From Nostoc sp. PCC 7120 = FACHB-418 (GTDB taxonomy: Bacteria; Cyanobacteriota; Cyanobacteriia; Cyanobacteriales; Nostocaceae), in the NCBI RefSeq assembly GCF_000009705.1, contig NC_003272.1, forward strand, positions 2,610,001 through 2,642,000: a stretch of DNA of 32,000 nt, given 5' to 3'. The position numbers and the translations under genes were made by a program. The notes below the pieces were generated by a model. That model saw nothing but the letters and a program-made list of their open reading frames with translations, did not search any database and was not told where the DNA came from. Below, piece by piece: positions 3,234 through 32,000 of the stretch; position 1 is the stretch's first letter; every line of letters begins with the position of its first letter.

Positions 3234-5825
3234 ATGAAGCGTTGCGACTTGACCGCAGGTATTCGTTTGTGGCTTTTTGTGAGTATTTGGGCATATTTGG
3301 CACAACCGGGATTAGCCGAGGAAAAGATACTCGATATACCCCAACTAGGAAACATAGACTTTCCTGCAACTAGCGCAAAATTATTGGTGCAAAAACCATC
3401 ACCAACCAATCCACCTGCAACAAGTGGCGAAGTTATTGGTATTACAGGAGTAAAAGCCAACCCCACCGAGAAGGGTGTGGAGGTGATTTTAGAGACAACC
3501 GCAGGGGATAAACTACAAGTTGCTAACCGCAGTACGGGGAATAATTTCATTGCAGATATCACTGGTGGGCAGTTAAGTTTACCTGATGGCAATGCTTTCA
3601 CCTTTAAGTCAGAAAAACCCATCGAGGGAATTACAGAAATTATAGTTACAAATATTGATGCGAATACGGTGCGGGTAACGGTGGTTGGTCAGAAAGCGTT
3701 ACCTGCGGTTGAGTTATTTGATGATAATACGGGGTTGATTTTTACCGTTGCATCTATGGCGACAACAGCCCAAAAACCAGAAGAAAAACCGGAGGAACAA
3801 CCCGCAGCGCAGCAGGATGACCCGATTGAGTTGGTGGTAACGGGGGAAGCAGATAGTTATCGTGTACCCAATGCAAGTGCAGCGACGCGGACAGATACAC
3901 CATTGCGGGACATTCCCCAGTCGATTCAGGTTGTACCGCAACAGGTACTCAAAGATCAGCAAGTTAATACCCTAAACGAAGCACTCCAAAATGTTAGCGG
4001 TGTGATTCAAACAGCTTCTAATTACTCTCAGTTTGCCAGTTTCACAATTCGAGGATTTAATTCTTTTGACCAAGGAGGTAATAATTTTACTAGAAATGGA
4101 TTGGGCTATCGTTTTGGAAGTCAAGGCACAAATTTTTCTAATATTGAACGCATAGAAGTTCTCAGAGGCCCTGGTTCAGTTTTATTTGGTAGTGGTAATC
4201 CTGGTGGTACTATCAATATTGTGACAAAACAACCACTAAGTGAACCTTTCTACTCTGTGGAAGCTGCAATTGGTAGCTATGATTTTTATCGAGGTGCAAT
4301 TGATTTATCTGGCCCGTTAGATGATTCTAAAACAGCACTGTATAGACTGAATGCGTCCTACGAGAAAGCGGATAACTTTGTCGATTTTAATGATCGAGAG
4401 AATTTTTCTGTTGCATCAACTTTGAGCTTTGCCCTTGGTGAAAATACAACTTTGACCCTAGACCAAGAATACAATAAGGTCAATCAGGGTTATTACAATG
4501 GTGTCCCGGCTGTTGGTACTGTGTTGCCTAATCTCAACGGCAGGATACCTCGTAACCGCAGCATTGGACAAGCAGATAGCACTTATAGCCCAGAAATTGT
4601 GAGAGTTGGGTACAACTTAGAGCATAAATTCAGTGAAGATTGGCTGTTGCGAAATGCCTTTTACTATTCACACTTTTACAATAAAACTAGAGATACTTAC
4701 TTCGCTAATGCTCTCGATCCTGACCAAAGAACATTACAGCGTGGTGTGCAAGATGCTGATGATAGGTATCAAACCTATGACCTCAGCACAAATGTTGTCG
4801 GTAAATTTTCCACCGGTTCTATCAAGCATCAACTTCTATTTGGTGTCGATTTGAGCAGATACGATCAATATCAGTCAGAATATGAGGGACGAACTGGTAC
4901 ACCGCTCGATCTTTTCAACCCAGATTATCGCCCAGAGAGGTTTGAGGTACTTTTTGCTGGTAACGAAGCTACATTAACAGATTCTTTGGGTGTCTACATT
5001 CAGGATCAAGTAACATTCGCGGAAAATTTTAAGTTACTTCTTGGTGGTCGATTTGATATCTTTGAGCAGACAAAAACAGATCGTCTCAGCAATACCGAAC
5101 AGTTTCAATCTGGAAGTGCCTTTAGTCCCCGTGTGGGAATTGTCTATCAACCCATTCCTCCTATTTCTCTGTATGCAAGTTACAGTCGCTCATTCACCCC
5201 AACTATTGGTAGAGCTTCTGATGGTGAGCAATTTGAACCAGGACGCGGTACTCAGTATGAGATAGGAGTTAAAGCAGATATTAACGAAAAACTATCTGCA
5301 ACGCTCGCTTTTTATGATCTTACTCGCTCGAATGTTACTACAAACGATCCTGCTAATCCAGAATTTTCCATTCAAACAGGGGAACAAAACAGTCGCGGTA
5401 TTGAATTAAACGTGGCGGGGGAAATACTTCCTGGATGGAACATCATTGCAGGATATGCTTATACAGATGCACGCATTACTCAAGATAATTCATTGCCAAT
5501 TGGCAATCGTTTAAACAATGTGCCAGAACATAGTTTAAGTTTATGGACGACTTATGAATTGCAAAAAGGTAATTTGCAGGGATTAGGTTTTGGACTAGGA
5601 TTGTTTTATTTGGGCGATCGCCAAGGAGATTTAGCAAATAGCTTTAATTTACCTAGCTATCTTCGCACCGATGCGGCTATTTTTTACAAACGCGATCGCT
5701 TTAGGGCTGCACTTAACATCAGGAATTTATTTGATCTGAAGTATTTTGAGTCAGCTTATTCTGATTTAACAGTTTATCCAGCAGAACCTTTAACTTTACA
5801 AGGGACAGTTTCATGGCAGTTTTAA
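3234..5825 (+). CDS. TonB-dependent siderophore receptor with AMIN-like N-terminal extension (cassette 1)
   Basis: 863 aa. It has a signal peptide, an N-terminal module GVKANPTEKGVEVILETTAGDKLQ...VRVTVVG, a P/E-rich linker, a TonB-box-like DPIELVVTGE, a plug (IERIEVLRGPGSVLFG...GGTINIVTK) and a barrel ending in the aromatic terminus TVSWQF. AGGGAG lies 6 nt upstream of the ATG. Confidence 0.9.
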   Translation: MKRCDLTAGIRLWLFVSIWAYLAQPGLAEEKILDIPQLGNIDFPATSAKLLVQKPSPTNPPATSGEVIGITGVKANPTEKGVEVILETTAGDKLQVANRSTGNNFIADITGGQLSLPDGNAFTFKSEKPIEGITEIIVTNIDANTVRVTVVGQKALPAVELFDDNTGLIFTVASMATTAQKPEEKPEEQPAAQQDDPIELVVTGEADSYRVPNASAATRTDTPLRDIPQSIQVVPQQVLKDQQVNTLNEALQNVSGVIQTASNYSQFASFTIRGFNSFDQGGNNFTRNGLGYRFGSQGTNFSNIERIEVLRGPGSVLFGSGNPGGTINIVTKQPLSEPFYSVEAAIGSYDFYRGAIDLSGPLDDSKTALYRLNASYEKADNFVDFNDRENFSVASTLSFALGENTTLTLDQEYNKVNQGYYNGVPAVGTVLPNLNGRIPRNRSIGQADSTYSPEIVRVGYNLEHKFSEDWLLRNAFYYSHFYNKTRDTYFANALDPDQRTLQRGVQDADDRYQTYDLSTNVVGKFSTGSIKHQLLFGVDLSRYDQYQSEYEGRTGTPLDLFNPDYRPERFEVLFAGNEATLTDSLGVYIQDQVTFAENFKLLLGGRFDIFEQTKTDRLSNTEQFQSGSAFSPRVGIVYQPIPPISLYASYSRSFTPTIGRASDGEQFEPGRGTQYEIGVKADINEKLSATLAFYDLTRSNVTTNDPANPEFSIQTGEQNSRGIELNVAGEILPGWNIIAGYAYTDARITQDNSLPIGNRLNNVPEHSLSLWTTYELQKGNLQGLGFGLGLFYLGDRQGDLANSFNLPSYLRTDAAIFYKRDRFRAALNIRNLFDLKYFESAYSDLTVYPAEPLTLQGTVSWQF

Positions 5826-7117: not shown

Positions 7118-8002
7118 TTAAGAATTAGCATCCAACCCCGACAACCAAGCATCTAAATCAGCCATGCTGGTAAAATCAAGCAACGCCTCACCGAGATTTT
7201 CCAATTGTTCCAACGAAAGGGATTCAACCTGCGATCGCACTTCCTGCGGTAACATCCCTACACGTCGATTTAATTGACGCAAAACGAGCGATTTTTCTCC
7301 TTCTTCCCTTCCTTCCTCCCTTCCTTCTTCCCTTCCTTCTTCCCTTCCTTCTTCCTTGATTTCGCGGTAAACCCGTGTTTCTTTGAGTGTAATTCCTAAC
7401 ATCTCTTCGACCTCCCGTCGGCTTTTACCTTCAAATTTATAAACCATGATTGTCGTCAATAAATCTATGATGGCACGATTTTCTGGTTGAGGTACTTCCT
7501 GTTGACTTCTTGCTAGTAAGTATCTTGCTTCTTCGGTTGCACGATTTTCTTCCAGGGTAGTCAACACCATCAACCCAACCCACACAGGTAAAGAACGAAT
7601 ATCTCCTAACTCATCTAAATATATCCGATGTACCTGGGGGCTATTAAGTTGACTCAGGTAAGGACTAATATCAGTTTGTTCTAAGCTGTGGGATGGGTAA
7701 ATGATGACGATTTGTAAATTGCTAAACCTGTCACGGTTGCGATAAAAGTACAGATAGGTTTCTGCAAACACCCTTTCGTATAGTCTTTCATCCCGTTGAA
7801 ACTGCACCTCACAGAAGTAAACAACCCCAGGATTTTGATTTTGTGGAGGTAAAAATACACCGTCAATTTCAAATTTAGGCTCTTTAACAGCTACCGAATC
7901 AAATATATATTCATCTGCATTACTTGGTGGATTTGTCAATAACTCAAATAACAAACTGGGAGATTGTTGAAATAGTTTATAAAATATCGAATCTCGACGC
8001 AT
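7118..8002 (-). CDS. Rpn-family recombination-promoting nuclease / putative transposase-like protein (PD-(D/E)XK N-terminus, DUF4351 C-terminus), copy 1
   Basis: MRRDSIFYKLFQQSPSLLFELL...KFEIDGVFLPP...VYFCEVQFQRDERLYERVFAE...C-terminal LSLEQLENLGEALLDFTSMADLDAWL. It is about 90 percent identical by eye to 12758..13603. I prefer the ATG at 8002, which matches the start of the paralogue. Confidence 0.75.
   Translation of the reverse strand: MRRDSIFYKLFQQSPSLLFELLTNPPSNADEYIFDSVAVKEPKFEIDGVFLPPQNQNPGVVYFCEVQFQRDERLYERVFAETYLYFYRNRDRFSNLQIVIIYPSHSLEQTDISPYLSQLNSPQVHRIYLDELGDIRSLPVWVGLMVLTTLEENRATEEARYLLARSQQEVPQPENRAIIDLLTTIMVYKFEGKSRREVEEMLGITLKETRVYREIKEEGREEGREEGREEGREEGEKSLVLRQLNRRVGMLPQEVRSQVESLSLEQLENLGEALLDFTSMADLDAWLSGLDANS
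7298..7354. repeat. 12-bp coding tandem repeat, about 4.75 units, encoding (EEGR)5 in Rpn-like copy 1
   Basis: The plus strand reads tcc ttc ttc cct repeated, which is GAA GAA GGA AGG on the gene strand. Paralogue 12758..13603 has a single EEGR unit at the same place. Confidence 0.85.
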
Positions 8003-8195
8003 GGAAGATTGGCTTAAACCTGGGGGCATTTTAGCAGCAAATAGATGTTTAGCGATACGCGTTAGCTTCGCTACACTGCGTAAACGCGCAGCGTGTCCAT
8101 TGGCAAAGCCGCCAAAAAAGGGCTAGGACTTAGCGTCAAGCCTCCGGCTTATGCACACCAAGCAACAGAGTCGCCTAACTAACTTTCCTTATTAA

Positions 8196-9262: not shown

Positions 9263-9409
9263 CTCATAGATTGGCATTTCCTTACACTATTTGCTGTGAC
9301 TGTTAGAACTTTTATGCAATAAGCTGGCTGGATGGGACAGGCTTGCTGACTTTTATGTAAGGTTGCAAATCTGAAATTTTCCGGTTGGGTATGATGTGTG
9401 AGGATATCA

Positions 9410-11215
9410 ATGAAGCTAGATAGGTTGTGCCAAAGCCTGTTGTTAACCAGTGCGATCGCTATTTTAATCCCAAGTCCCGCCCAAGGTGAGGAAGTTGAAA
9501 CAGAAATTCGACAAGCCAAGCAAAATATTTCCCAACTGAGCGAAATTGAACTTCCTCCAACTAACGCTCGAATGTTGGTACAGACACCAACCAATCCCTC
9601 TACTCTCCAAGGCGATATTATACCTATAATGGGTGTGAAAGCTAATCCCACAGAGAAAGGTGTAGAAGTAATTTTAGAGACAGCCGCAGGGGATAAACTG
9701 CAAATCACAAATCGCAGTGAAGATAATAATTTTGTTGCAGATGTTTCTGGTGGGCAGTTGCGTTTACCCAATGGGGATGCTTTCACATTTAAGTCGGAAA
9801 AACCCATCGAGGGAATTACGGAAATTACAGTTACAAACATTGATGTGAATACCGTGCGGGTAACGGTAGTTGGGGAGAAAGCGTTACCTGCGGTTGAGTT
9901 ATTTGATGATGATATGGGGTTGATTTTTGCAGTAGCATCTACAGCCACATCTGCACAAACGCCGGAAACACCAACCGAAGAACAGCCAGCAACAGAGAAA
10001 CCTGAAGAACAACGCGCAGCCCAGCAGGATGACCCGATTGAGTTGGTGGTGACGGGGGAACGGGATAGTTATCGTGTACCGAATGCCAGTACGGCGACGC
10101 GGACAGATACACCATTGCGGGATATTCCCCAATCGATTCAAGTTGTGCCGCAGGAAGTATTGCGCGATCGCAATGCCCAAACTGTGTTTGAGGCAGTAGA
10201 AACCGTTAGTGGTGTTCTTGACGGTTCTAACAACTATGGCGCACCCGGTGGAACCAACATTATTAGAGGATTTATCTCATTTGACTCAGGAAGTTTACGC
10301 AACGGCTTTCGAGATTATGATTACTACTCCGTGTCATCTATCGGGACAATTGAACAAGTAGAAGTGCTAAAAGGGCCAGCCTCAGTTCTATTCAGCGCGC
10401 AGGAACCAGGTGGTGTTATAAATACTGTTACTAAGAAACCCCTCAGTACACCCTATTATAATGTCGCATTTCAAGCAGGTAATTATGGATTTTATCAACC
10501 AAGTATTGACTTATCAGGCCCATTAACAACAGATGGAAATGCGTTGTACAGACTTATCACCAGCCATCGAGGTACTGGAAGTTATATAGATTTTGTTAAT
10601 TCCAATACAACCACAATTGCACCCTCCATTACCTTAAAATTCGGAGAACGGACAGACCTAAATTTATCTTATGAGTACGTTAGATATTTTGCAGATAATC
10701 CAATATTTGAAGTTCCGCTACTTACCGATGGTAGCTTACCACCTCGAAATTTTTATTCTGCCTATCCTGATTTAGTCTTATCTGATATCACAACCAACAG
10801 AATTGCTCTAAATCTGAACCACGAATTCAGTGAAAACTGGAAACTTCGCAATAATCTGGCAATAGTTCTGAATCAAAGAACTTTGGCTCTTGCGTTGGTT
10901 TTATGGTGGAGCATTAAAATCACAGTTTTATAGAAAGGCTCAAAAACTTAAAACCCAGTCACAGCAATGAATGCAGGCTATCTTTGGGTTTTATTTATTA
11001 TTCTGTTCCATAAAATGAACTGAAGAGCCAGAACTTTAAACCGAACCATTTTTAACACCCTCATTGATGACCGCATTTTGACAGACTCATTTGCTTAAGA
11101 ATCTACTTCTTATGCAAATAACTACCTTGGACAAATAGACTTACTAGGAAACTTAAAAACTGGCTCAATTTCACACCAACTGTTAGCAGGCTTTGATGTC
11201 AACTACTTTGAGACT
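9410..11215 (+). pseudogene. TonB-dependent siderophore receptor, cassette 2, disrupted (MITE insertion, in-frame TAA, 3' deletion)
   Basis: The N-terminal 250 aa are nearly identical to TBDT-1. The reading frame is interrupted at 10885 by a 145-bp element. Receptor homology resumes at 11038 (NRTIFNTLIDDRILTDSFA*ESTSYANNYLGQIDLLGNLKTGSISHQLLAGFDVNYFETEYQ) with a TAA at 11096..11098. It ends abruptly near 11215, where binding-protein sequence begins. Confidence 0.8.
10885..11029. mobile_element. 145-bp MITE-like insertion inside TBDT-2 with an 8-bp target-site duplication
   Basis: AGAACTTT occurs at 10877..10884 and 11030..11037, flanking the element. The ends form imperfect inverted repeats: GGCTCTTGCGTTGGTTTTATGG versus the reverse complement of the other end, GGCTCTTCAGTTCATTTTATGG (18/22). 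Removing the element plus one duplicated copy restores a 52-residue spacing between the W.LRN and GSI.H motifs, compared with 53 and 52 in TBDT-1 and TBDT-3. Confidence 0.65.
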
Positions 11216-12757: not shown

Positions 12758-13603
12758 TTAATTACCATCCAATTCCGACAACCAAGCATCTAAATCAGCC
12801 ATGCTGGTAAAATCAAGCAACGCTTCACCGAGATTTTCCAATTGTTCCAACGAAAGGGATTCAACTTGTTGACGCACTTGCTGCGGTAATTCCCCTACAC
12901 GTCGATTTAGTAAACGGAAAATGAGCGATCGCGCTTCTACCTCACGTCCTTCTTCCTTAATTTCCCGGTAAACCCGTGTTTCTTTGAGTGTAATTCCCAA
13001 CATTTCCTCTACCTCCCTTTGGCTTTTCCCTTCAAACTTATAAACCATGATTGTCGTCAATAAATCTATGATGGCACGATTCTCTGGTTGAGGTACTTCC
13101 TGCTGACTCCTCTCTAGTAAATACCTAGCTTCTTCAGTTGCTTGTTCCTCATCAATTGTAGTTAACACCATCAACGCAACCCACACAGGTAATTGGCGAA
13201 TCTCTCCCAATTCATCTAAATATATTCGATGCACCTGTGGGCTATTAAGTTGACTGATGTAAGGAGTGATATCACTTTGTTCTAAGCTGCGGGATGGGTA
13301 AATGATCACAATTTGCAAATTACTAAATCTATCCCGGTTACGATAGAAATATAACCAAGATTCTGCAAATACTCTTTCATATAGTCTTTCGTCCTTTTGA
13401 AACTGCACCTCACAGAAATACACCACACCCGGACTTTGATTTTGTGGAGGCAGAAATACACCGTCAATTTCAAATTTTGGTTCTTTAACAGCTACCGAAT
13501 CAAAAATATATTCATCCGCATTAGTTGGCGGGTTTGTCAATAGCTCAAATAACAAACTAGGGGATTGTTGAAATAATTTATAAAATATAGAATCTCGACG
13601 CAT
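12758..13603 (-). CDS. Rpn-family recombination-promoting nuclease / putative transposase-like protein (DUF4351 C-terminus), copy 2
   Basis: It is 281 aa and a near-identical paralogue of 7118..8002, without the EEGR expansion. It is divergent from AraC-3, just as copy 1 is divergent from AraC-2. Confidence 0.8.
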   Translation of the reverse strand: MRRDSIFYKLFQQSPSLLFELLTNPPTNADEYIFDSVAVKEPKFEIDGVFLPPQNQSPGVVYFCEVQFQKDERLYERVFAESWLYFYRNRDRFSNLQIVIIYPSRSLEQSDITPYISQLNSPQVHRIYLDELGEIRQLPVWVALMVLTTIDEEQATEEARYLLERSQQEVPQPENRAIIDLLTTIMVYKFEGKSQREVEEMLGITLKETRVYREIKEEGREVEARSLIFRLLNRRVGELPQQVRQQVESLSLEQLENLGEALLDFTSMADLDAWLSELDGN

Positions 13604-14915: not shown

Positions 14916-17477
14916 ATGAGTATGAAAATCGCTATTTTCCTGGCTGGGGCGTTAGCTCTGGTCGCTATTCAACCTGTCTGGGCAGAAAGTATCAACCAGA
15001 TGGAAGTGGAGGAACAAAAATCACTTACCGCCTCTGTTAAGAAAAGGCTGAGGACTGTTAAAGAGAAAGAATGGCTGGCGCAGGCAAATACAGCAGTTAT
15101 CCAGGTAACTGGCGTGAAAGCCAATCCTACTGACAAAGGTGTAGAGATACTTCTAGAAACTTCCCAAGGAGAAAAACTACAAATTACAAATCGTAGTGCA
15201 GGTAATAGCTATATCACTGATATTTCTAATGCACAACTACGTTTACCGAGTGGAGAATCCTTCACATTCCGCTCCGATAAACCAATTGCAGGTATTACTG
15301 AGATTACCGTCACAAATCAAGATGCTAATACTATCCGAGTCAGCATAGTTGGGGAAACCATCTTACCAACTGCCGAGTTGTTTGATAGTGATGAGGGATT
15401 AATTTTTGGTCTGACATCTGTGACAGCTTCATTACCACCCCAACAGCCAGAAACTCAGTCAGAACAGCCATCACCAGCAGCAGAAGAGCCAATTGAATTG
15501 GTGGTGACAGGGGAAAAAGATGGCTATCAAGTTCCTAATACTGCAACCGTTACACGAACGAATACGCCCATTATCGATATACCCCAGTCTATTCAAGTTG
15601 TTCCCCGTCAGGTACTCGAAGACCAACAAATTACCCGCGTTGATGATGCACTCCGCAATGTTCCTGGTGTACTTGGTAGTACCAACGCTTTTATCGGTAA
15701 TCAAATCACAATTCGTGGTTTTAGCACTTCTAACCTGCCGATTTTAAGAGATGGCTTTAGGATATACGAAAACTTCTCGTTTCAAGAAACATCAAATTTA
15801 GAGCGTATTGAAGTTTTAAAAGGCCCAGCTTCGGTGCAGTATGGTCAACTAGACCCAGGTGGGGTAATTAACCTAGTTACTAAAAAACCACTATCAGAAC
15901 CGTTTTACGAAATTCAGGCTCAATTTGGTAGTTATGGACTGATAAGACCCAGTTTTGATGTTTCCGGGCCGTTGACTGACGATGGTAAATTGCTTTATCG
16001 ACTGAACGCAACTTATCAACGGGAGGAAGGGTTTCGGGACTTTAATACAGAAACAGAAAGGTTTTTTATTGCCCCTAGCTTGACATGGAAGATTAGCGAT
16101 CGCACTAACGTAGACTTTTCCCTAGAATATCTCGATAGTACACGACCATTTGATACAAGTTTAGTAGCTTTTGGTAGGAGTGTGGCTGATGTTCCTTATA
16201 GTCGCGTTTTTAATGACCCTGATGACTTTATTGATACAAAATCTTTCAGTATCGCCTACAACTTAGAACATCGCTTCAGCGATAACTGGACTCTACGCAA
16301 TAGTTTCCGATATCTGCAACAAGATTTATTTACCCAAGCCACCCTGGCTGGTTCCCTCAATGAAACTACAGGGATTCTCACTCGCACCTATGCCCAACGC
16401 GAGTATAAATCAGATGATTACTCACTGCAAACAAATGTTGTCGGTAAGTTTACTACAGGTTCTATCAAACATACACTGCTAGCTGGCGTTGATTTTAATC
16501 GGGGTCTTCTCGATGATTTAGTCTTCAGAGGTACACGAACGACATTAAATATATTCAATCCAGTTTATGGAGTCCCTCCTAGAACAGATTTTTCCACATT
16601 ACCGCCAGCTACTCCATTTAAGAACGAAACAACTAGGCTAGGATTTTATCTGCAAGACCAAATTGCATTGAATAACCAATTTACTGTATTGGCTGGTTTA
16701 CGCTACGATACTGTTGATTTTAAAGATACTTTCACAGATGAAAGTAAATACGATAGTGCCTGGAGTCCAGTAATTGGTTTGGTTTATAAACCAGTGGAAA
16801 ATCTTTCTATTTACACCAGCTATTCCCGGTCATTTGTACCAAGTTTTTCCAGAGATGCTAACGGCGATTTTCTGCAACCGGAACGTGGCGCAGGATACGA
16901 AGTAGGTATCAAAGCAGAATTACTTCAAGGCAATCTTTTTGCGACATTAGCTTACTTCGATATTACCAAACAGAATGTATCCACAGCTGATCCTGACGTT
17001 TTGGGAGCATCCGTAGCCACTGGTGAACAGCGCAGTCGTGGTATTGAACTCAGCGCAGTTGGCACAATTGCACCAGGATGGAATATTATTGCTGGCTACG
17101 CTTACACTGATGCTGAAATTAGCAAAGATAACACTATAGCTGTGGGCAATCGCTTACCAGGAACTCCCAAACACAGTGCGAATCTTTGGACAACCTACGA
17201 AATTCAAAAGGGTAGTTTACAAGGCTTAGGTTTTGGACTTGGCGTTAATTATGTTGGTAAACGGTTCGGCAACTTTCAAAATGATTTTGAGGTGGATAGT
17301 TATTTTCTCACCAATGCTGCTCTATTTTATCGCCAAAATAACTGGCGAGTTGGACTGAATTTCAACAACATTTTTGACATTAATTATATTAGTAGTGCTG
17401 CCACATTGACCAGAACTCGCTCTATTGAACCAGGGCAACCATTTACTGTAGTTGGCTCAATTTCGTTGGAATTTTAG
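14916..17477 (+). CDS. TonB-dependent siderophore receptor with AMIN-like N-terminal extension (cassette 3)
   Basis: 853 aa. It has a signal peptide (ALVAIQPVWA), the module VTGVKANPTDKGVEILLETSQGEKLQ, a TonB-box-like EPIELVVTGE, the plug motif LERIEVLKGPASVQYG and the barrel terminus GSISLEF. Confidence 0.9.
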   Translation: MSMKIAIFLAGALALVAIQPVWAESINQMEVEEQKSLTASVKKRLRTVKEKEWLAQANTAVIQVTGVKANPTDKGVEILLETSQGEKLQITNRSAGNSYITDISNAQLRLPSGESFTFRSDKPIAGITEITVTNQDANTIRVSIVGETILPTAELFDSDEGLIFGLTSVTASLPPQQPETQSEQPSPAAEEPIELVVTGEKDGYQVPNTATVTRTNTPIIDIPQSIQVVPRQVLEDQQITRVDDALRNVPGVLGSTNAFIGNQITIRGFSTSNLPILRDGFRIYENFSFQETSNLERIEVLKGPASVQYGQLDPGGVINLVTKKPLSEPFYEIQAQFGSYGLIRPSFDVSGPLTDDGKLLYRLNATYQREEGFRDFNTETERFFIAPSLTWKISDRTNVDFSLEYLDSTRPFDTSLVAFGRSVADVPYSRVFNDPDDFIDTKSFSIAYNLEHRFSDNWTLRNSFRYLQQDLFTQATLAGSLNETTGILTRTYAQREYKSDDYSLQTNVVGKFTTGSIKHTLLAGVDFNRGLLDDLVFRGTRTTLNIFNPVYGVPPRTDFSTLPPATPFKNETTRLGFYLQDQIALNNQFTVLAGLRYDTVDFKDTFTDESKYDSAWSPVIGLVYKPVENLSIYTSYSRSFVPSFSRDANGDFLQPERGAGYEVGIKAELLQGNLFATLAYFDITKQNVSTADPDVLGASVATGEQRSRGIELSAVGTIAPGWNIIAGYAYTDAEISKDNTIAVGNRLPGTPKHSANLWTTYEIQKGSLQGLGFGLGVNYVGKRFGNFQNDFEVDSYFLTNAALFYRQNNWRVGLNFNNIFDINYISSAATLTRTRSIEPGQPFTVVGSISLEF

Positions 17478-20962: not shown

Positions 20963-21091
20963 TAGGACTTACGCATCCCGGTTATCTGTTGAGACTGGGT
21001 GTAAGGGGGTAAGGGTATAGGGGTGTCAATGTTTAAAACTCTTACACCCCTCTCCAAACCCTTGATTTTTCGTTTTCATGCGTAAGTCCTA
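20963..21091. mobile_element. 129-bp MITE with 13-bp terminal inverted repeats TAGGACTTACGCA and a 5-bp target-site duplication AATGA
   Basis: The left end taggacttacgca (20963..20975) and the right end tgcgtaagtccta (21079..21091) are perfect reverse complements. AATGA occurs at 20958..20962 and 21092..21096. Confidence 0.75.
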
Positions 21092-26316: not shown

Positions 26317-26914
26317 AGATTGACAAATCAGAATCTAGTAAGATGCGCTTAAGTTTGAGTAATCCTTGGCGGGTAGAGGTTTTGACTGTACCTAGAGGGA
26401 TATCAATTTGTTTGGCAATTTCTGACTGACTTAATCCTTGGTGATAAGCTAGTTCGATTACTTGGCGTTGTTTTTCGGGTAGTTGGGCTAAAGCGTTGTG
26501 AATGCGCCCCGATCGCTCGGCAAAACTCGCCTGTTCAACAGGTGTTGGCTCTGGTGCGGCTTCATTTGTCATGGTTTGTCCCCACTTTTCCACAAGTTTG
26601 AGTTGTCTAGTGCGAGCGCGAATTTTGTCGATGGCACGCGATCGCGTTATTGTCACCAAATAGCGCACAAAAAAGCGACAATCAGGATTACTGGATGCTT
26701 TGCGCCACAGTGTGAGAAAAATTTCCTGGGTTAAGTCTTCTGCTTCTTGGGAATCAGCCAGAATTTTCAAAGCCAATCCATAAACTAAGCGACCATGACG
26801 ATTGAATAAAACACTTAATGCCGCCGAATCGCCATTTTTGAGTCCCACAAATAAAGCTTCATCCGTCACATCGGTAAGCCCTGTTAAAGTCGACTGGGAT
26901 TGTTTAGGCTCCAT
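26309..26914 (-). CDS. ECF-type sigma-70 family RNA polymerase sigma factor (SigG-like pairing with the downstream anti-sigma gene)
   Basis: Region 2 reads LVYGLALKILADSQEAEDLTQEIFLTLW. Region 4 reads LPEKQRQVIELAYHQGLSQSEIAKQIDIPLGTVKTSTRQGLLKL. Confidence 0.85.
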   Translation of the reverse strand: MEPKQSQSTLTGLTDVTDEALFVGLKNGDSAALSVLFNRHGRLVYGLALKILADSQEAEDLTQEIFLTLWRKASSNPDCRFFVRYLVTITRSRAIDKIRARTRQLKLVEKWGQTMTNEAAPEPTPVEQASFAERSGRIHNALAQLPEKQRQVIELAYHQGLSQSEIAKQIDIPLGTVKTSTRQGLLKLKRILLDSDLSIYE

Positions 26915-27065
26915 GCGATTTTTAACCCATATCTAAACTAATACAGTCGCCAGTTTTGCATACTTTTTCTGTCATCACCTCGCTCCACAACGTACATAGA
27001 GATATGTTTGCTTAAAAAAGCCGTCTATATAATATGACGACTGAGGGAGGCGATCGGATTTAGTG

Positions 27066-27082
27066 TTAGATGGGGATATTTG
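27066..27082. repeat. Left copy of the exact 17-bp direct repeat TTAGATGGGGATATTTG
   Basis: An identical 17-mer occurs at 31232..31248. The two copies bracket the toxin-antitoxin (TA)/defence island. Confidence 0.8.
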
Positions 27083-27112
27083 GATGGGGAGGGGGATGTA
27101 GGTTATAATTCG

Positions 27113-27367
27113 TCAGGCGGTGTCGTCACCATTTGCAGATTTTGGCATCGACTTAATTAATGCCCTGAGTACCTTATTAACAGATTCTGGCGTTGTAAAA
27201 ACTTCAGCAACATCTTCATCTAAAACCACAACTTTTAATAGTTGCTTTCCACCATGAGTTGCAAAACGATTTGGCTTTGCCTTTTTATAATCAAAGTGGT
27301 ACTCACCTAGAAGCTCATCATTTGCATTTTGTGACTCTTCAAAAGGCGTTTTGCTCATAGTCTTCAC
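27113..27367 (-). CDS. brnA: BrnA-family antitoxin
   Basis: It is 84 aa. The motif YHFDYKKAKPNRFA resembles the BrnA DFSKAKxNPxA signature. It overlaps the BrnT gene by 29 nt. Confidence 0.7.
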   Translation of the reverse strand: MKTMSKTPFEESQNANDELLGEYHFDYKKAKPNRFATHGGKQLLKVVVLDEDVAEVFTTPESVNKVLRALIKSMPKSANGDDTA

Positions 27368-27617
27368 GCTCTCTTCGAGTGGCTAAACGGGCGCTGATAA
27401 TACGAATGGCGTTAGGGCGTTCTGTGAACGAAATTATTAGCAAGCGATTGTTTTGAGAATGCCCAATAATAATCTCTCGCTTCTCACCCACTGAGTGAGC
27501 TTCATCATCAAAAATCACTGCTAGCACATTATCGAAGACAGTCTTGGCTTCTTCAAAGCTGACACTGTGCTTCTTGAGGTTAGTAGCTGCTTTTGACTCA
27601 TCCCACTCAAATTCCAT
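27339..27617 (-). CDS. brnT: BrnT-family (DUF497) ribonuclease toxin
   Basis: MEFEWDESKAATNLKKHSVSFEEAKTVFDN...HSVGEKREIIIGHS...IRIISARLATRREREDY matches the BrnT consensus closely. Confidence 0.8.
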   Translation of the reverse strand: MEFEWDESKAATNLKKHSVSFEEAKTVFDNVLAVIFDDEAHSVGEKREIIIGHSQNNRLLIISFTERPNAIRIISARLATRREREDYEQNAF

Positions 27618-27831
27618 GTCATCATCATAAGCGATCGCCTTTCATCACACACACTTTTATTTATCAAGGTTACGTCCGGTGGGAGCGATCGCTTTTCTCA
27701 AAGATGTTTAACGACAAAGTTGTGCGGCAGCAGATAAACTCGAACACCAACCGACAAACTTTGTACCGTCCGCACCAACGTATTGTTAGCTGGCTTACCC
27801 CACAGATAGCCTTCAAGTACGATTAGAGGAT

Positions 27832-28230
27832 TCAAGGCTGAAAACGAAGGTGTTGAAGAGCGCGCACCTGAGCAATGGTTTCAAAGTCACGATCATTATG
27901 GATCAAAAGCAAATTATTTTCCAGTGCTACTTGAGCAATACAGCAATCGATTGGACTACGAACGATAAGCCCTTGGCGGCGCAAGTCAAAATAGATGCGG
28001 GCTGCTGCTTGCCAAGACTGAACTGTGAGTTCAACGTAATTTTGTGTTTCGAGGTAAGTAGAAAGGAGAGTCCATTCTTGCTCGTTTAGGCTGCCTTGAA
28101 GTAATTCAAGCTGAGTGAATCGGGTGAGTAAAACTTCACGCTCGGCGATCAGAGTTTCAAGTTGTTGGCGAACTTGATCACTGCGATCGCGAAACACGCC
28201 AATCCAGACCGATGTATCAATCAGCAGCAT
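27832..28230 (-). CDS. vapC: PIN-domain toxin, VapC family
   Basis: MLLIDTSVWIGVFRD...ELLQG...IDCCIAQVALENNLLLIHNDRDFE. I prefer the ATG at 28230, which gives a 4-14 nt overlap with vapB, over the extended 169-aa call. Confidence 0.8.
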   Translation of the reverse strand: MLLIDTSVWIGVFRDRSDQVRQQLETLIAEREVLLTRFTQLELLQGSLNEQEWTLLSTYLETQNYVELTVQSWQAAARIYFDLRRQGLIVRSPIDCCIAQVALENNLLLIHNDRDFETIAQVRALQHLRFQP

Positions 28231-28429
28231 GACGAGTTTCACGCAGGGCTTTATGGTCAAAGTCAGGAGCGAACTGAATTTGCCCCGCGAGGTCGAGGAG
28301 ATTTTTTTTGCGGCGCGATCGCACGAGTTCTTGCAGAGCAAAGTTCACCAGTTCCTCTTGGCTGGCAAGGTTGGTCAGTTGGCTGGCTTCGTTAAGCAGA
28401 GACTCGTCAAGGTTAAGAATGATTTGCAT
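28217..28429 (-). CDS. vapB: VapB-type antitoxin
   Basis: MQIILNLDESLLNEASQLTNLASQEELVNFALQELVRSRRKKNLLDLAG is typical of the short type II VapB antitoxins found upstream of PIN toxins. Confidence 0.7.
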   Translation of the reverse strand: MQIILNLDESLLNEASQLTNLASQEELVNFALQELVRSRRKKNLLDLAGQIQFAPDFDHKALRETRHAAD

Positions 28430-28537
28430 GGAATGGGAATGCGAAGTAAGCACAATTATTCTTTTTACATCTTAACCTTATGGACAACCTACCTCAATTC
28501 ACGTATTGGTTAACTGGCTTTTTACCGTAGTTTTAAG

Positions 28538-29218
28538 CTACTTTCTTTGACGCAAAGCCCTTTCAAATCGCTCTGCTAAGACAACAGTCATAAATGGCTC
28601 CATAAATCCTCCAAAGAATGGAATTGAACGCATCATAGCTAACGAGACAAGCGTTGGATCAACAGACTTGCTAAGAACTCCTAAAATTGCACTTTCGGCG
28701 GCTTTACGAGTATATGAGCGACAGATAACATTCGCATTTTTCATATACACCTCAATTAGATCGGATGTATTATTTACAGAAATTAGCTCAAGGTAAACAC
28801 GGTCACCTGGATTCAATAGCTCAATGCTCAAATCAAGTTCGCTATTCTGACGCTGTAACTCACTAATTTTTCCAAAGCCGACTTCAGGTTCAGTCTTTAT
28901 GCTGTAGCCAACGATCTTGGCATTATTATCAAGTCGTACCAAAACTGGTTGATTTCCAACTGCTTGGTTTCCAGAATTGAAAACTTCGAGATTGAACAGA
29001 AAAACAGATGTTGTTTGTTCTCCTGCATATTTCACTTCTAATTTACTCCGAATCGTATCTGAAAATGTTAACAGCGAAGATGCGTCATTGATGACACAAT
29101 CAATTCGTCTAACTCGGCTTGTTTTTTGCCAGATGAATATGGACGCTGCTGCTGTTATTGCTGCTCCAACAACTCCACCAATAATTGCAGCAATCGTAGG
29201 GTTCTCATACCAATTCAT
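28538..29218 (-). CDS. Hypothetical membrane protein: N-terminal TM helix, beta-rich middle, hydrophobic/amphipathic C-terminus; family not recognised
   Basis: It is 226 aa. The TM helix is PTIAAIIGGVVGAAITAAASIFIW. The middle shows an alternating polar/hydrophobic pattern (KLEVKYAGEQTTSVFLFNLEVFNSG...LDLSIELLNPGDRVYLELISV). The C-terminus reads LVSLAMMRSIPFFGGFMEPFMTVVLA. It lies on the same strand as, and downstream of, the ThsA/ThsB-like genes. Confidence 0.5.
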   Translation of the reverse strand: MNWYENPTIAAIIGGVVGAAITAAASIFIWQKTSRVRRIDCVINDASSLLTFSDTIRSKLEVKYAGEQTTSVFLFNLEVFNSGNQAVGNQPVLVRLDNNAKIVGYSIKTEPEVGFGKISELQRQNSELDLSIELLNPGDRVYLELISVNNTSDLIEVYMKNANVICRSYTRKAAESAILGVLSKSVDPTLVSLAMMRSIPFFGGFMEPFMTVVLAERFERALRQRK

Positions 29219-29515
29219 CTATTGCATTACTCCTCATCACGTGAACATAAATTTCCAGCTAACGGCTAAAGTGAGCGGCAGTAGATGTGACCGAAACGAA
29301 GACGATGACTCTATACTATCCGCTCCACTGTTTTGTTAGCCCACGCTGAGTCATTATTGCTATGCTTCTGAGATTGATCGATTTCCATTAAAAATACTCC
29401 TTCGCACTTAATTGCAACTTCTTCATACAAAACAATGAATCCTCTAATTACATTCACTATTCCATTAGGGGACTTCACAAAAGTTAGGACGGTGTTTCAT
29501 AATCTTTGCTACAAC

Positions 29516-30115
29516 TTACAAACCATTCTTAGCCGATTTAATATCCAACAGGTTAATTCTGTCTATCTTGCTTTCATGTATAATAATGTGCAATTTTGCT
29601 GGATATTTAAACCGCATCTCACTAATTCTAAACGTCCAAAGCATTATCTTCAACAAGTCTTCATCACTGATGTTTTTGTGTTCTTTGATGCGTGTTATTC
29701 CTGAACCAAATATAGGAACTGAGACGCTCTTTTGTGCGTACACCCTATTAACCTTATCCCAAAATCTAATTAAAAAACCGAGATAATCTGGCATTGTCAA
29801 CCAAGCTCTATTTTGCTCATCAAACTTTGAGAATGCAGTCAAAAGATATTCGTTGTAAACACAGACAGTGCCAATACTATATCGTTTCTTCTTACCAAAT
29901 CTTCTAGCTGTATTTTCATCTAAAGTTTCATCATCATCGAACGAATAGTTCTCTATGTATTTGTCTAATTCGGATACAGGAATGTCAAGATGCTTGGCAA
30001 TGAAAATTCCATTGAGCGACTGTTGAGAAATTATCTTGTCATCGACCTGAGTATCAAAATACTCATTAAATGCAATGACTTTGAATCCAGGCTGCTTAAA
30101 AATGTTACCTTTTCT
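29516..30115 (-). CDS. ThsA-type Macro (DUF6430-like) domain module, open frame without a canonical start, +1 relative to the upstream 2TM ORF
   Basis: The frame is open from 30115 and translates as RKGNIFKQPGFKVIAFNEYFDTQVDDKIISQQSLNGIFIAKHLD...GKKKRYSIGTVCVYNEYLLTAFSKFDEQNRAWLTMPDYLGFLIRFWDKV...SVSVPIFGSGITRIKEHKNISDEDLLKIMLWTFRISE...KLHIIIHES. These motifs match my recollection of the Thoeris ThsA Macro family. The ORF track lists only the part after an internal TTG (29516..29842). Confidence 0.6.
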   Translation of the reverse strand, partial: RKGNIFKQPGFKVIAFNEYFDTQVDDKIISQQSLNGIFIAKHLDIPVSELDKYIENYSFDDDETLDENTARRFGKKKRYSIGTVCVYNEYLLTAFSKFDEQNRAWLTMPDYLGFLIRFWDKVNRVYAQKSVSVPIFGSGITRIKEHKNISDEDLLKIMLWTFRISEMRFKYPAKLHIIIHESKIDRINLLDIKSAKNGL

Positions 30116-30353
30116 TTACGGATACAATGCTTCCCTCAACATCTAGATTGACTTCTTCTAAGTAATTGGATTTAAGCCACAGAAAAGCATATATAATAAG
30201 TAGTATTGCTGCAAAAATGATGCCAAGTGTTAGTTTTACCTCTTTAGGTATCTCAACAAATATCAGTAGAAGAGAAAGCCCTACACTTATCCATGATGTA
30301 AATTCTAGGAATTGTTTGATAATTCTATTATCAAGCAAATTAACTTTGACCAA
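30105..30353 (-). CDS. Two-TM-helix N-terminal module of a ThsA-like effector (terminated by a frame change)
   Basis: It is 82 aa with helices WISVGLSLLLIFVEI and LTLGIIFAAILLIIYAFLW. The TTG start is preceded by AGGAGGAGG. It ends ...DVEGSIVSVKKR-TAA exactly where full-length TM-Macro proteins would continue into the Macro domain. Confidence 0.6.
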   Translation of the reverse strand: MVKVNLLDNRIIKQFLEFTSWISVGLSLLLIFVEIPKEVKLTLGIIFAAILLIIYAFLWLKSNYLEEVNLDVEGSIVSVKKR

Positions 30354-30421
30354 AGCCTCCTCCTAAACTTCAATTTTCTTGTTTTTTACCAAAGGCTGTC
30401 ATACCAACGGTTAAGACATTG

Positions 30422-30982
30422 TTATCGATAAAGATACACATCTGGTGTTGTTTTCGTGTTTGTCATGAAGTCATTATTTTTCAGCGACTCAGTAATAAGA
30501 TATTTATTCATCGGGACATGTAAAGTTGGAACTTTATTCATTGATTCCCTTAGTATCGGTAGCTTATTCCATAAATTCTTAATCTCGTCTTTTAAAGAGC
30601 CGTTATGCAAGAGGCTTTCCTTGGTATCGTAGTCGGGGTAGATCACAATTACCGGAAGTCCAAGTGAATTTATTCCGTAATCTATTTCCTCTTTTAGGGC
30701 GCGAGAATTTACTGTCCTTTCGCTGAGGAATAGGATCACGTTCTTTGAGTTTCTAAGACGTTCTCGGAGCCTTGGCTTCAAGGTTAACTCCCAGTCACTG
30801 CCATCTCGAACGCTGTAAGTTTTACTATGAGAGTCGTTGAAGGGAAAGGATGAGTCACTTCCTTTCCAAGTTCTCAGCAAATTGTAGTAAACAAAGTCCT
30901 TGGTTGCGTATGCGCCTAAAGCACTTTCATTAAATGGTTCAGCAACGTAGAAAGCACAGTAATTTCCGTTTTTGTATGACAT
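30422..30982 (-). CDS. TIR-like domain protein (DUF1863 / ThsB-like)
   Basis: MSYKNGNYCAFYVAEPFNES...FPFNDSHSKTYSVRDGSDWE..LKPRLRERLRNSKNVILFLSERTVNSRALKEEIDYGINSLGLPVIVIYPDY parallels the ThsB layout: beta-1 FFSFHY, then NTSVTCVLIGSQTFNRRWVRYEI...GNKIIGIHI. It includes the conserved Glu position. The ATG at 30982 is preceded by GAGGAA. Confidence 0.65.
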   Translation of the reverse strand: MSYKNGNYCAFYVAEPFNESALGAYATKDFVYYNLLRTWKGSDSSFPFNDSHSKTYSVRDGSDWELTLKPRLRERLRNSKNVILFLSERTVNSRALKEEIDYGINSLGLPVIVIYPDYDTKESLLHNGSLKDEIKNLWNKLPILRESMNKVPTLHVPMNKYLITESLKNNDFMTNTKTTPDVYLYR

Positions 30983-31048
30983 TCTTTCCTCAATACTGCC
31001 TTTGTCAATGAACAATGATGCTTAAATTAAGGCTCGGCTAACTACTTA

Positions 31049-31232
31049 TTATACCCAATGTTCCATCTAATCCCCTTCCATAAGTGTTTATACTGAACTG
31101 TTCTGTATAATACCCTAAATTCCAGTATTATACCGAATCTTTCCTTATAAACAACCTTTTTAAGTGGTTTATACGGAAAATATTCCATATAAATCTTCAT
31201 ACAGGGTTATTCAAAAGAACTATTCCGTATTT
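31049..31232. promoter_or_regulatory. Periodic array of inverted 10-bp half-sites (TTATAC.GAA / TTC.GTATAA) upstream of the ThsB-like gene
   Basis: The pairs are TTATACCCAA-tg-TTCCATCTAA (31049), TTATACTGAA-ctg-TTCTGTATAA (31088), TTATACCGAA-tct-TTCCTTATAA (31128) and TTATACGGAA-aata-TTCCATATAA (31169). Starts are spaced 39, 40 and 41 bp apart. Extra half-sites include TTCCATAAG (31076), TTCCAGTAT (31120) and TTCCGTAT (31223). Confidence 0.5.
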
Positions 31233-31248
31233 TAGATGGGGATATTTG
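31232..31248. repeat. Right copy of the exact 17-bp direct repeat TTAGATGGGGATATTTG
   Basis: It is identical to 27066..27082. It lies immediately outside the half-site array and 13 bp from a MITE. Confidence 0.8.
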
Positions 31249-31261
31249 ATTTTAAATAAAC

Positions 31262-31386
31262 CAGGACTTACGCAAGTGTCACAATCGATATTTGGTGCGT
31301 GACGCTATAAATCTCATGACTACGTTCAAATACTTTTGCAGCGTCACACACCCTACGTGAAAAATATGCCAGTTGCGTAAGTCCTA
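31262..31386. mobile_element. 125-bp MITE with the same terminal inverted repeat family as 20963..21091 ((C/T)AGGACTTACGCAA) and a 5-bp target duplication TAAAC
   Basis: The left end is caggacttacgcaa and the right end is ttgcgtaagtccta. TAAAC occurs at 31257..31261 and 31387..31391. The interior differs from the first copy and has its own inverted repeat (ggtgcgtgacgct / agcgtcacacacc). Confidence 0.7.
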
Positions 31387-31725
31387 TAAACTTAATAATT
31401 AATTGGGATGTTGGGAATTCGTCAACGTTTTTTTGCTAATTCAAGAACAGCGATCGCTATTGTAACTCAATGACTCTCCAGATACCGATATCAATGTTTG
31501 AAAATAAGTCTCCTGACCTTGAATGAGGAGTTCCCGAAAGATACTTAAATATCAAAACTTTAACACGAAGAAAAAAGTTTGAATTTAATTAAATCCAATC
31601 TCGATCATCAGTCGTCTTAGTAAACAGATGCGTCACAATTGACCACTCCAGTACCCATCTCAGGTCAGCATTGTGGCAGCATATTGCAAATTAAACAGTT
31701 TTAGTCTGAGAATAGGAAGAATTTT

Positions 31726-32000
31726 ATGCACAAACGCGCAAACTTCTTGCTCAAAATTTGTTTGAGCAGCCTGGTTTTTACTGCATCAATATTAGCAACA
31801 ACCACAGCCAGTATTTCTGCAACCGAAGCTAAATCATCAATTACAAAAGTTGCTCAGGTAAATCCATCTACTGCTACTAGCAACTCTGTAGGCGGGCCGT
31901 TAGCTAAAGAACTTCAAGGAAAACCAGTTGTAGTAGACGTGTTTGCTACTTGGTGTGCTGGCTGTAAGAATATTGCTCCTACTTTGTCACAGTTGAAACA
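31726..32000 (+). CDS. Secreted thioredoxin-like / TlpA-type thiol-disulfide oxidoreductase, N-terminal part (gene continues past the window end)
   Basis: MHKRANFLLKICLSSLVFTASILATTTASISA is a signal peptide. It is followed by GKPVVVDVFATWCAGCKNIAPTLSQLK with a WCxxC active site. AGGAAG lies upstream of the ATG. Confidence 0.75.
   Translation, partial: MHKRANFLLKICLSSLVFTASILATTTASISATEAKSSITKVAQVNPSTATSNSVGGPLAKELQGKPVVVDVFATWCAGCKNIAPTLSQLK

Follow-up and report, generated by a model that had tools for sequence, protein, structure and literature searches.

Type II Thoeris, in which a TIR-like ThsB is paired with a ThsA that joins two N-terminal transmembrane (TM) helices to a C-terminal Macro domain, is already well described. 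In the TM-macro system of Escherichia coli CFT073 (EcThsA; PDB 8V6Q/8V6R; Shi et al. 2024, PMC11204291), a 278-aa ThsA is accompanied by two thsB genes, and the model of effector oligomerisation presupposes that a single chain contains both the TM and the macro domain. E. coli macro domains bind ADPR and IAD; His-ADPR has been demonstrated for the Bacillus system only, where it is the signal of the type II Thoeris of Bacillus amyloliquefaciens Y2 (Sabonis et al., bioRxiv 10.1101/2024.01.03.573942). The thsA-thsB2 system of E. coli ATCC 25922 (Englert et al. 2026, bioRxiv 10.64898/2026.01.22.701046), likewise composed of a DUF1863 ThsB and a 2TM-Macro ThsA, requires both genes and the TM helices for defence, removal of one or both helices from ThsA abolishes protection, and the system arrests growth, with no NAD+ depletion and no cell death that could be detected. 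Type I Thoeris shares the logic of a TIR sensor that passes a small NAD+-derived signal to a separate effector.

We analysed a 32,000-nt stretch of the Nostoc sp. PCC 7120 chromosome (the window) and found, on its minus strand, a locus with the same architecture and gene order as the B. amyloliquefaciens Y2 system. It is very probably a canonical two-gene type II Thoeris system, thsB followed by thsA, in which the effector gene has been broken by one additional A and which would no longer be functional. The features of the locus are as follows.

29495..31055, minus strand: thsB-thsA cassette common to other cyanobacteria, recognised at the DNA level (78-89% nucleotide identity, ~1.56 kb)
30422..30982, minus strand: thsB, intact, 186 aa; TIR-like (DUF1863), sensor and signal synthase by homology
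30105..30353, minus strand: 5′ fragment of thsA, an 82-aa ORF with two TM helices; TTG start after AGGAGGAGG, premature TAA at 30107-30105
30110..30113, minus strand: frameshift site, coding-strand AAAA versus AAA of the intact allele
29516..30115, minus strand: 3′ fragment of thsA with the entire Macro domain (residues 82-278 of the intact protein); open frame by translation

A preliminary description of this DNA had reported the three frames with their characteristic motifs and had proposed a Thoeris type II pair; the ORF list and the translations confirm the frames and the motifs, and Pfam, PADLOC and PDB matches uphold the family assignments. ThsB matches Pfam PF08937 (ThsB_TIR; E=7.2e-27) and PADLOC PDLC00421 ThsB (E=4.5e-77, residues 1-185 of 186), and it is similar in sequence to PDB 3hyn (E=1e-77) and to the Bacillus ThsB of PDB 9uv0, putatively the Y2 protein by its source names (E=2e-74, full-length identity 60%). 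The ATG start has GAGGAAA 5′ of it; an alternative TTG at 31015 would extend the product to 197 aa, and the homologues and the PADLOC model begin at the ATG. Among 59 homologues, E98/E99 and 43 more residues are invariant, and the protein shows no departure from the ≥90% consensus. The two glutamates (SRALKEEIDYG) align with the EE of 3hyn and 9uv0, so that the catalytic-Glu position pointed out earlier is indeed kept, and E99 would, by analogy only, be the catalytic residue. The sequence is identical to BAB73899.1 (Nostoc sp. PCC 7120). EcThsB2 (8v6t) is only weakly similar (E=4.5e-8) and belongs to another ThsB type, and tblastn found no ThsB of the window type beside the Enterobacter thsA homologue (L011); furthermore, a single thsB is present here, in contrast to the two of E. 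coli CFT073. In the window, thsB ends 68 nt before thsA begins.

The 82-aa fragment of thsA has hydropathy peaks at about residues 19-36 and 40-60, in keeping with the two TM helices assigned to it previously. Its frame and that of the 3′ fragment overlap at GTA AAG AAA AGG TAA with a one-base offset within the A4 run, and conceptual deletion of one A from 30110-30113 fuses both frames into a protein of 278 aa, the length of EcThsA and with the same numbering. The fused product matches the PADLOC TM-Macro ThsA model (PDLC00413) over positions 1-278 of 278 (E=7.2e-126), of which the 82-aa fragment covers 1-81, and Pfam PF20016 (ThsA_Macro) over 1-183/183 of the profile (E=3.4e-64). Enterobacterial ThsA homologues are ~72% identical to it at full length. 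The macro domain of EcThsA, which like the fused protein has two N-terminal TM helices, aligns without gaps (PDB 8v6q, E=1.3e-104), whereas that of B. amyloliquefaciens (Macro_amylo, PDB 8r66) is more distant (E=1.2e-47). Type I effectors combine a SIR2 NADase with SLOG and respond to 3′cADPR, both unlike this system, and no product of the locus matched SIR2 or SLOG in Pfam or PADLOC.

Ligand-contact residues were then mapped from two structural papers. The cleft residues D100, N114, S175, S217, T220, R221 and K262 are conserved; they include S217, T220 and K262 together with D100 and N114 of EcThsA, and N114, S175 and R221 are the counterparts of N133, S194 and R240, through which Macro_amylo contacts His-ADPR. 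The oligomer-interface residues R182, Q207, I219, R221 and K249 are the same in EcThsA, position 182 being variable across the family. D83 and F250 of EcThsA are replaced by N and Y, and D100/Y277/Q135 of Macro_amylo correspond to N83/H259/I116. Position 83 is D in 75/79 other species and N in 4/79; because the Asp contacts adenine N6 and its replacement is rare, ligand affinity or specificity could differ. Decay of ThsA before the frameshift was considered and rejected, D83N being the sole departure from the ≥90% consensus and occurring also in four other species.

To place the additional A among related genomes, the alleles were compared across assemblies and sequencing runs. The window and its near-identical sister L001 align over 8485 nt with no mismatches and one gap, the thsA A-run. 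The sister assemblies carry AAA and an intact thsA, as does Fortiea (L005), the nearest relative, at 98% nucleotide identity; AAA is seen in L001-L004 and L095, and ERR1254310 is among the runs with this allele. An intact 278-aa protein (P0001/P0241; Anabaena sp. FACHB-709, BAY67822.1 and others), indexed in 127 collection blocks, has exactly the sequence of the conceptual fusion (100% identity). A reference-genome sequencing or assembly error, the organism truly having an intact thsA, would account for a one-base homopolymer change, a classic error type, that is the only difference in 8.5 kb, and private indels resembling errors do occur in some related JGI assemblies (L003, L004, L110). The AAAA allele, however, is present in 10/10 retrieved reference-free Logan contigs (L085-L094), each 100% identical to the window; these come from the SRR34939xxx series (SRR34939167-204) and SRR6049612, and the counts are of sequencing runs, which may share cultures. 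The 82-aa ORF is moreover found on one JGI contig and indexed in 30 collection blocks. With no fewer than 10 reference-free assemblies from other runs showing AAAA, the additional A is a real mutation and we give an error in the reference almost no credence.

In 80/80 related-species loci the ThsA match is uninterrupted and free of frameshift, one ending early only by a contig edge. Judged from these comparisons, the ancestral thsA is intact and the extra A is confined to one clonal lineage. TM helices in one chain with the Macro domain are found in the ancestral or sister allele (P0001/P0241) only and not in the window, where the additional A has cut them off into an 82-aa ORF of their own; the locus thus descends from type II Thoeris, and its effector gene is disrupted.

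A second disruptive allele was found in other runs of the same clone.

29567..30058, minus strand: segment absent from the second thsA allele, an in-frame 492-nt deletion in the Macro domain

Its 114-aa product (P0243) is encoded on 24 contigs of five accession series; runs with the deletion are ERR3503006, SRR20172384-86, SRR32280514-24, SRR32409266 and SRR32993897. L100-L109 match the window on both sides of the missing segment and have AAA at the A-run, by which the deletion is a lesion of thsA independent of the extra A and arisen on the AAA background. The contigs retrieved for both disruptive alleles show no further difference from the window over 1-2 kb to either side. We left a 13-nt deletion allele on a JGI contig (L110) out of the tally of independent lesions, since the same contig has other private indels.

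The preliminary description had regarded the split effector as foreign to the described architecture, and two polypeptides, a TM peptide and a soluble Macro protein assembling non-covalently, could in principle make up a functional effector. Both halves have kept open frames with no further damage, and the RefSeq model places a 195-aa macro protein at ATT 30103, immediately past the stop of the 5′ fragment, with AAGG a few bases 5′ of the ATT. The frameshift is very recent, and the lack of further decay is therefore uninformative. The Macro half has no canonical start codon ahead of residue 171, the first ones being TTG 29842 and ATG 29794 (asl2199, 92 aa). Furthermore, the split occurs in one clonal lineage only, the sisters and all the related-species loci having a contiguous gene, and deletion of TM helices kills defence in E. 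coli, where the TM/Macro link that the mutation breaks here is intact. The separate loss of the Macro domain altogether in a different lineage favours loss over redesign, and a working two-chain effector is accordingly regarded as most improbable.

Slightly better, and still very unlikely, is the prospect of a leaky frameshift, in which +1 slippage on A-AAA-AGG would supply a toxic effector in small amounts that the cell might tolerate. By sequence, a +1 slip at AAA in AAAA-GG restores the wild-type ...VKKGNIF...; tRNA-Lys would re-pair on AAA with AGG waiting in the A site, an arrangement that we take to resemble the +1 site of the Ty1 CUU-AGG-C type. Among the Arg codons of the window genes, AGG has the lowest usage (4.6 per 1000), but it is not very rare there, and the slip site is unconserved, being present in the mutant lineage only. 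An Rfam scan of 28000-32000 (E≤1) returned nothing, and this interval thus contains neither a known RNA element nor a known frameshift stimulator; at sites of this kind, ribosomes that slip spontaneously into the +1 frame normally do so at rates far under 1-2%. Low-level full-length ThsA may nevertheless arise by this route, or the Macro half by reinitiation at ATT 30103.

Under the preferred reading, that of a canonical system with a broken effector, the intact ancestral pair would have acted as follows. Phage infection would activate the TIR-like ThsB, which by homology would convert NAD+ to an ADP-ribose conjugate, and the conjugate would bind the C-terminal Macro domain of membrane-anchored ThsA. 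ADPR and IAD binding has been shown in E. coli and His-ADPR in Bacillus only, so which conjugate serves as the signal in this system is inferred. ThsA dimers would then oligomerise and draw the N-terminal TM hairpins together, and the gathered hairpins would perturb the membrane or arrest growth, halting phage propagation. The additional A at 30110-30113 is predicted to interrupt this chain by shifting the frame at codon 82, leaving an 82-aa anchor peptide and a Macro domain without a canonical start. With the effector broken, the system has in all probability lost its function in the PCC 7120 strain, thsB still being intact.

We delimited the cassette by blastn of five other loci (L006-L010) against the window; the matches stop at 30989-31055 upstream and at 29495-29516 downstream. 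The same cassette is found in Fortiea, Pseudanabaena, Nodosilinea and several cyanobacterial MAGs, and a ThsB-like gene adjoins thsA in 75/80 species-level loci, which bears out the expected co-location in other genomes. The thsB-thsA cassette is horizontally mobile. That the host is a filamentous cyanobacterium was inferred correctly before: the window contains 35 HIP1 octamers, and exact protein matches link it to the chromosome of Nostoc sp. PCC 7120, but the presence of the cassette in other cyanobacteria contradicts the idea that this host is unusual. A plasmid megablast with 28400-31300 gave no match, and promoter and terminator scans gave counts equal to the shuffled expectation.

The downstream gene for a 226-aa membrane protein, previously listed as a feature of the system, was ruled out as a third Thoeris component: tblastn found it in 0/80 other Thoeris loci, window positions 27790-29260 are missing from Fortiea, and its homologues are solitary and in unrelated contexts. 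The protein had no PADLOC or Pfam match. Upstream of thsB, two repeat features were delineated.

31088-31178: cluster of four TTATACNGAA motifs
31263-31385: MITE-like hairpin element with 12-nt terminal inverted repeats

These account for the periodic palindrome array of the preliminary description, of which the repeats themselves are real and a CRISPR-like or iteron array is not; Tandem Repeats Finder reported no array near the thsB-thsA locus. Both features fall outside the shared 1.56-kb cassette and are incidental to the system. The contrast in GC content of 32 versus 47% reported between the block and its flanks was overstated (thsA 33.8%, thsB 39.4% and shared cassette 36.0% versus 40.5% for the window; other genes 36-46%).

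As a system, the locus adds little to what is known: crystal structures exist for 60-75%-identical homologues of both proteins, and the intact sister proteins are already named ThsA and ThsB in public databases. Its relevance lies in the genome that serves as reference for a major model cyanobacterium: the effector gene annotated there (asl2199 or the 195-aa fragment) is a presumably dead copy, and a live one is present in sister stocks; work on cyanophage susceptibility and censuses of defence systems that use this reference would miss or misjudge thsA. At least two independent, probably null alleles of thsA next to an untouched thsB provide a starting point for testing the cost of the TM-Macro effector, and the isogenic series of AAA, AAAA and the 492-nt deletion provides material for Thoeris tests in a cyanobacterium. 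It is possible, though we put it forward only tentatively, that thsA but not thsB has been lost repeatedly in cultured lineages of one clone because a costly TM-Macro effector is selected against without phage. If so, the cost would come from autoimmunity or from leaky activation by the intact ThsB, and 'wild-type' PCC 7120 stocks of different laboratories would differ in phage-defence genotype.

A literature search on Thoeris in PCC 7120, Nostoc and cyanobacteria and on asl2199, all2200 and all2198 retrieved no relevant experimental work. Its only hit was a microarray table, in which all2200 rises 2.35-fold (SD 2.13) on over-expression of sigJ; a paper describing PCC 7120 substrains resistant to phage makes no mention of the locus.

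The Thoeris pair lies on the minus strand, where ORF lists and translations bore out the three reading frames of the preliminary description at the coordinates it gave:

30422..30982, minus strand: thsB, 186 aa, ATG start preceded by GAGGAAA
30105..30353, minus strand: 5′ fragment of thsA, 82-aa peptide, TTG start preceded by AGGAGGAGG
30115 to the stop at 29516, minus strand: open 3′ (Macro) frame of thsA, the translation of which holds the Macro motifs quoted in that description

The 82-aa peptide has two hydrophobic helices (approximately residues 19-36 and 40-60), and its frame overlaps the Macro frame as GTA AAG AAA AGG TAA C ATT; removal of one A from the A4 run at 30110-30113 gives ...VSVKKGNIFKQPGF... 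and thereby a single 278-aa product. Profile searches against the Pfam and PADLOC models gave strong matches for both proteins: the 186-aa protein matched ThsB_TIR (PF08937; E=7.2e-27) and, across its full length, the PADLOC ThsB model (E=4.5e-77), and the 278-aa fusion matched ThsA_Macro (PF20016; E=3.4e-64, profile positions 1-183 of 183) and the PADLOC TM-Macro ThsA model (positions 1-278 of 278; E=7.2e-126). Comparison with the PDB found close relatives with solved structures for both ThsB and the ThsA Macro domain. The latter aligned without gaps and with identical numbering to 8v6q of Escherichia coli CFT073 (E=1.3e-104), with a further match to the Pseudomonas corrugata macro domain 8v6s; ThsB matched 3hyn and the Bacillus structure 9uv0 (60% identity over the full length), a protein named by NCBI ‘Thoeris anti-phage system ThsA activator ThsB'.

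Contacts published for E. coli CFT073 ThsA (EcThsA; PMC11204291) and for the B. amyloliquefaciens Y2 Macro domain (Macro_amylo; bioRxiv 10.1101/2024.01.03.573942) were then mapped onto the 278-aa product, and conservation of ThsA was scored in 79 species-level homologues. The EcThsA contact residues D100, N114, S217, T220 and K262 are all kept, as are N133, S194 and R240 of Macro_amylo, which correspond to N114, S175 and R221 of the product; across the homologues D100, N114, S175, S217, T220, R221 and K262 are invariant or nearly so. Within the cleft, only the residue that contacts adenine N6 deviates: it is Asn in the product and in four other species and Asp in 75 of 79 (EcThsA D83, Macro_amylo D100). 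The interface residues R182, Q207, I219, R221 and K249 agree between the product and EcThsA, and four of the five are kept family-wide, position 182 being variable (Lys in 44 and Arg in 26 of 79). In the homologue alignment of ThsB, both E98 and E99 are invariant, and the protein agrees with the consensus at every position where that consensus reaches at least 90%. The catalytic and ligand-binding residues of the pair are thus conserved; together with the profile and structure matches, this shows that the assignment to type II Thoeris in the preliminary description was right, and demonstrates both family memberships alongside the adjacency of thsB and thsA.

The conceptual 278-aa fusion is 100% identical to intact database proteins (BAY67822.1, MBD2170086.1 of Anabaena sp. 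FACHB-709 and others) carrying the UniRef name ‘Thoeris protein ThsA Macro domain-containing protein'. Five contigs, four from JGI and one from ENA, have the intact allele in the same gene neighbourhood, and alignment of the window with a near-identical sister assembly over 8485 nt revealed no mismatches and one gap, namely the extra A. Fortiea sp. LEGE XX443, the closest other species (98% nucleotide identity), reads AAA, and thsA is unbroken there and in 79 further loci of related species, one of which ends early only at its contig end; since the gene is uninterrupted in all 80 loci, the ancestral gene was intact. The index of the sequence collection lists the 82-aa ORF in 30 blocks, and all ten retrieved reference-free Logan contigs (SRR34939xxx series and SRR6049612), each 100% identical to the window, read AAAA. 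This reproduction in independent assemblies excludes a sequencing error in the reference as the source of the split and establishes the extra A as genuine. The frameshift is therefore a real, very recent and lineage-specific mutation, and the split effector, which had been taken as a departure from the known architecture, comes down to a single base.

By analogy with the named homologues, ThsB would sense infection and produce an ADPR conjugate from NAD+, the conjugate in B. amyloliquefaciens Y2 being His-ADPR (bioRxiv 10.1101/2024.01.03.573942); the Macro domain would bind it, upon which ThsA would oligomerise in the membrane, leading to membrane damage or growth arrest of the cells. In the published activation model, the macro-domain oligomer pulls covalently joined TM hairpins together (PMC11204291), and deletion of the TM helices from an E. 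coli type II ThsA abolished defence (bioRxiv 10.64898/2026.01.22.701046). The first canonical start of the Macro half is TTG 29842 or ATG 29794, and the RefSeq 195-aa Macro model is obliged to start at ATT 30103. Loss of function is expected on these three grounds, and we infer that the frameshifted effector is null and thsB orphaned in this strain. The Macro half has no start codon and the split is confined to one clone, both of which contradict the reading as a designed two-part effector. A leaky +1 slip on A-AAA-AGG would give back the wild-type ThsA sequence exactly, and of the Arg codons AGG is the one used least in the genes of the window (4.6 per 1000); however, an Rfam scan of 28000-32000 found no RNA element, and nothing points to slippage above background level.

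A second lesion was found in a 114-aa product of the same 90% cluster as ThsA, encoded by 24 contigs that span five accession series; its DNA lacks exactly 492 nt in frame (window 29567..30058; seen in contigs L100-L109) and with them nearly the whole Macro domain. These contigs read AAA at the frameshift site, so the deletion is independent of the extra A. Retrieved contigs with either lesion have flanks identical to the window, except L104, which has a second one-base gap upstream, and thsB is called intact in all contigs that span it. No comparable truncated alleles on multiple contigs turned up in the clusters for ThsB and the neighbouring 226-aa protein. Taken together, these alleles hint at recurrent loss of the effector, with a possible ascertainment bias because they came from examining thsA itself. 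The JGI contigs L003, L004 and L110, which come from the same organism, have private indels (window 26246, 26343-26361 and 30020-30035) in genes for an rskA-like anti-sigma factor and an ECF sigma factor and in thsA; these may reflect mistakes in assembly or heterogeneous cultures and were left out of the evidence, and the 13-nt thsA deletion in L110 was discounted as a further lesion, given the other private indels of that assembly.

The segment shared at the DNA level by cyanobacterial Thoeris loci spans only ~29495-31055 (78-89% nucleotide identity), and the following features flank it:

28538..29218, minus strand: 226-aa membrane-protein gene, N-terminal TM helix and hydrophobic C-terminus
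31088-31178: TTATACNGAA motif cluster, copies at 31088 (+), 31101 (−), 31128 (+) and 31169 (+)
31263-31385: hairpin element with AGGACTTACGCA as its 12-nt terminal inverted repeats, folding at −51.9 kcal/mol (z −6.9)
27832-28453: VapB/PIN toxin-antitoxin pair
27113-27617: BrnT and 84-aa partner, toxin-antitoxin pair

The 226-aa protein, whose gene had been noted earlier as an extra one downstream, has no matches in Pfam or PADLOC, and its gene is missing at all 80 other Thoeris loci; in Fortiea the stretch corresponding to window 27790-29260 is lacking, and with it both this gene and the neighbouring VapBC pair. The protein belongs to an orphan family found mainly in cyanobacteria (60-100% identity in Nostocales, Microcoleus and Moorena), with a small number of remoter homologues outside them, and in three other genomes the homologues are solitary, lying by a helicase and GmrSD, by transposases or by TA genes. 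We therefore ruled it out as a Thoeris component; it is a neighbour, perhaps a mobile gene of the defence-island type that acts on its own. The upstream palindrome array likewise proved to lie beyond the shared segment. A second hairpin copy at 20964-21090 shares the 12-13-nt terminal inverted repeats (T)AGGACTTACGCA...TGCGTAAGTCCT(A) and has an unrelated interior, identifying the hairpin as a dispersed MITE-like repeat. The TTATACNGAA cluster, 106-196 nt upstream of thsB, is real: three direct copies are spaced by 40-41 nt, one pair forms a 23-bp palindrome (31088-31110), and the 32 kb hold no further copies (0.44 expected); it could represent an operator cluster or a repeat-element remnant. 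Nor is the filamentous host unusual, as the cassette also occurs in Fortiea, Pseudanabaena mucicola (ThsA 91% amino-acid identity), Nodosilinea and three cyanobacterial MAGs, with ThsA at 72% identity in Enterobacterales, and is a widely transferred module. The GC content of thsA (33.8%) and of the cassette (36.0%) is below that of the window (40.5%), which fits acquisition from elsewhere, albeit with a far milder contrast than the earlier figures for an AT-rich block.

The locus is recognisable with standard HMMs, intact sister proteins are already named in public databases, and literature searches returned no paper describing the PCC 7120 Thoeris locus. It is an undescribed, pseudogenised member of type II Thoeris, unremarkable save for being broken; what remains of interest is that a model organism offers a thsA allele series, along with the hint that the effector has been lost repeatedly. 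Exact-sequence look-up identified BAB73899.1 of Nostoc sp. PCC 7120 as ThsB, BAB73898.1 (‘asl2199') as the last 92 aa of the Macro frame and BAB73897.1 as the 226-aa neighbour.

In the Fortiea contig (NZ_JADEXZ010000151.1), thsA is intact (96% amino-acid identity), thsB is represented by residues 141-186 only, with similarity stopping 257 nt short of the contig end, and Thoeris adjoins the BrnT/BrnA pair. In the window, a tight toxin-antitoxin run (26996-28453) directly downstream of the module forms a small variable islet between a thioredoxin/DsbD cluster and an ECF sigma/anti-sigma pair. The remainder comprises siderophore-uptake genes (TonB-dependent receptors, AraC regulators and binding proteins) and toxin-antitoxin pairs, with 35 HIP1 octamers in the window. 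The plus-strand TonB-dependent receptor ORF at 9398-10933 (AMIN and Plug domains) ends at 511 aa partway through the barrel, gives way to unrelated sequence and a PIN/antitoxin pair, and is probably a truncated pseudogene; its paralogues have 863 aa (3234-5825) and 853 aa (14916-17477). Paralogous DUF2887+DUF4351 genes at 7118-8029 and 12758-13603 (minus) alternate with the siderophore-receptor/AraC units, the former containing a 12-nt tandem repeat (TCCTTCTTCCCT, 4.8 copies) at 7298-7355.
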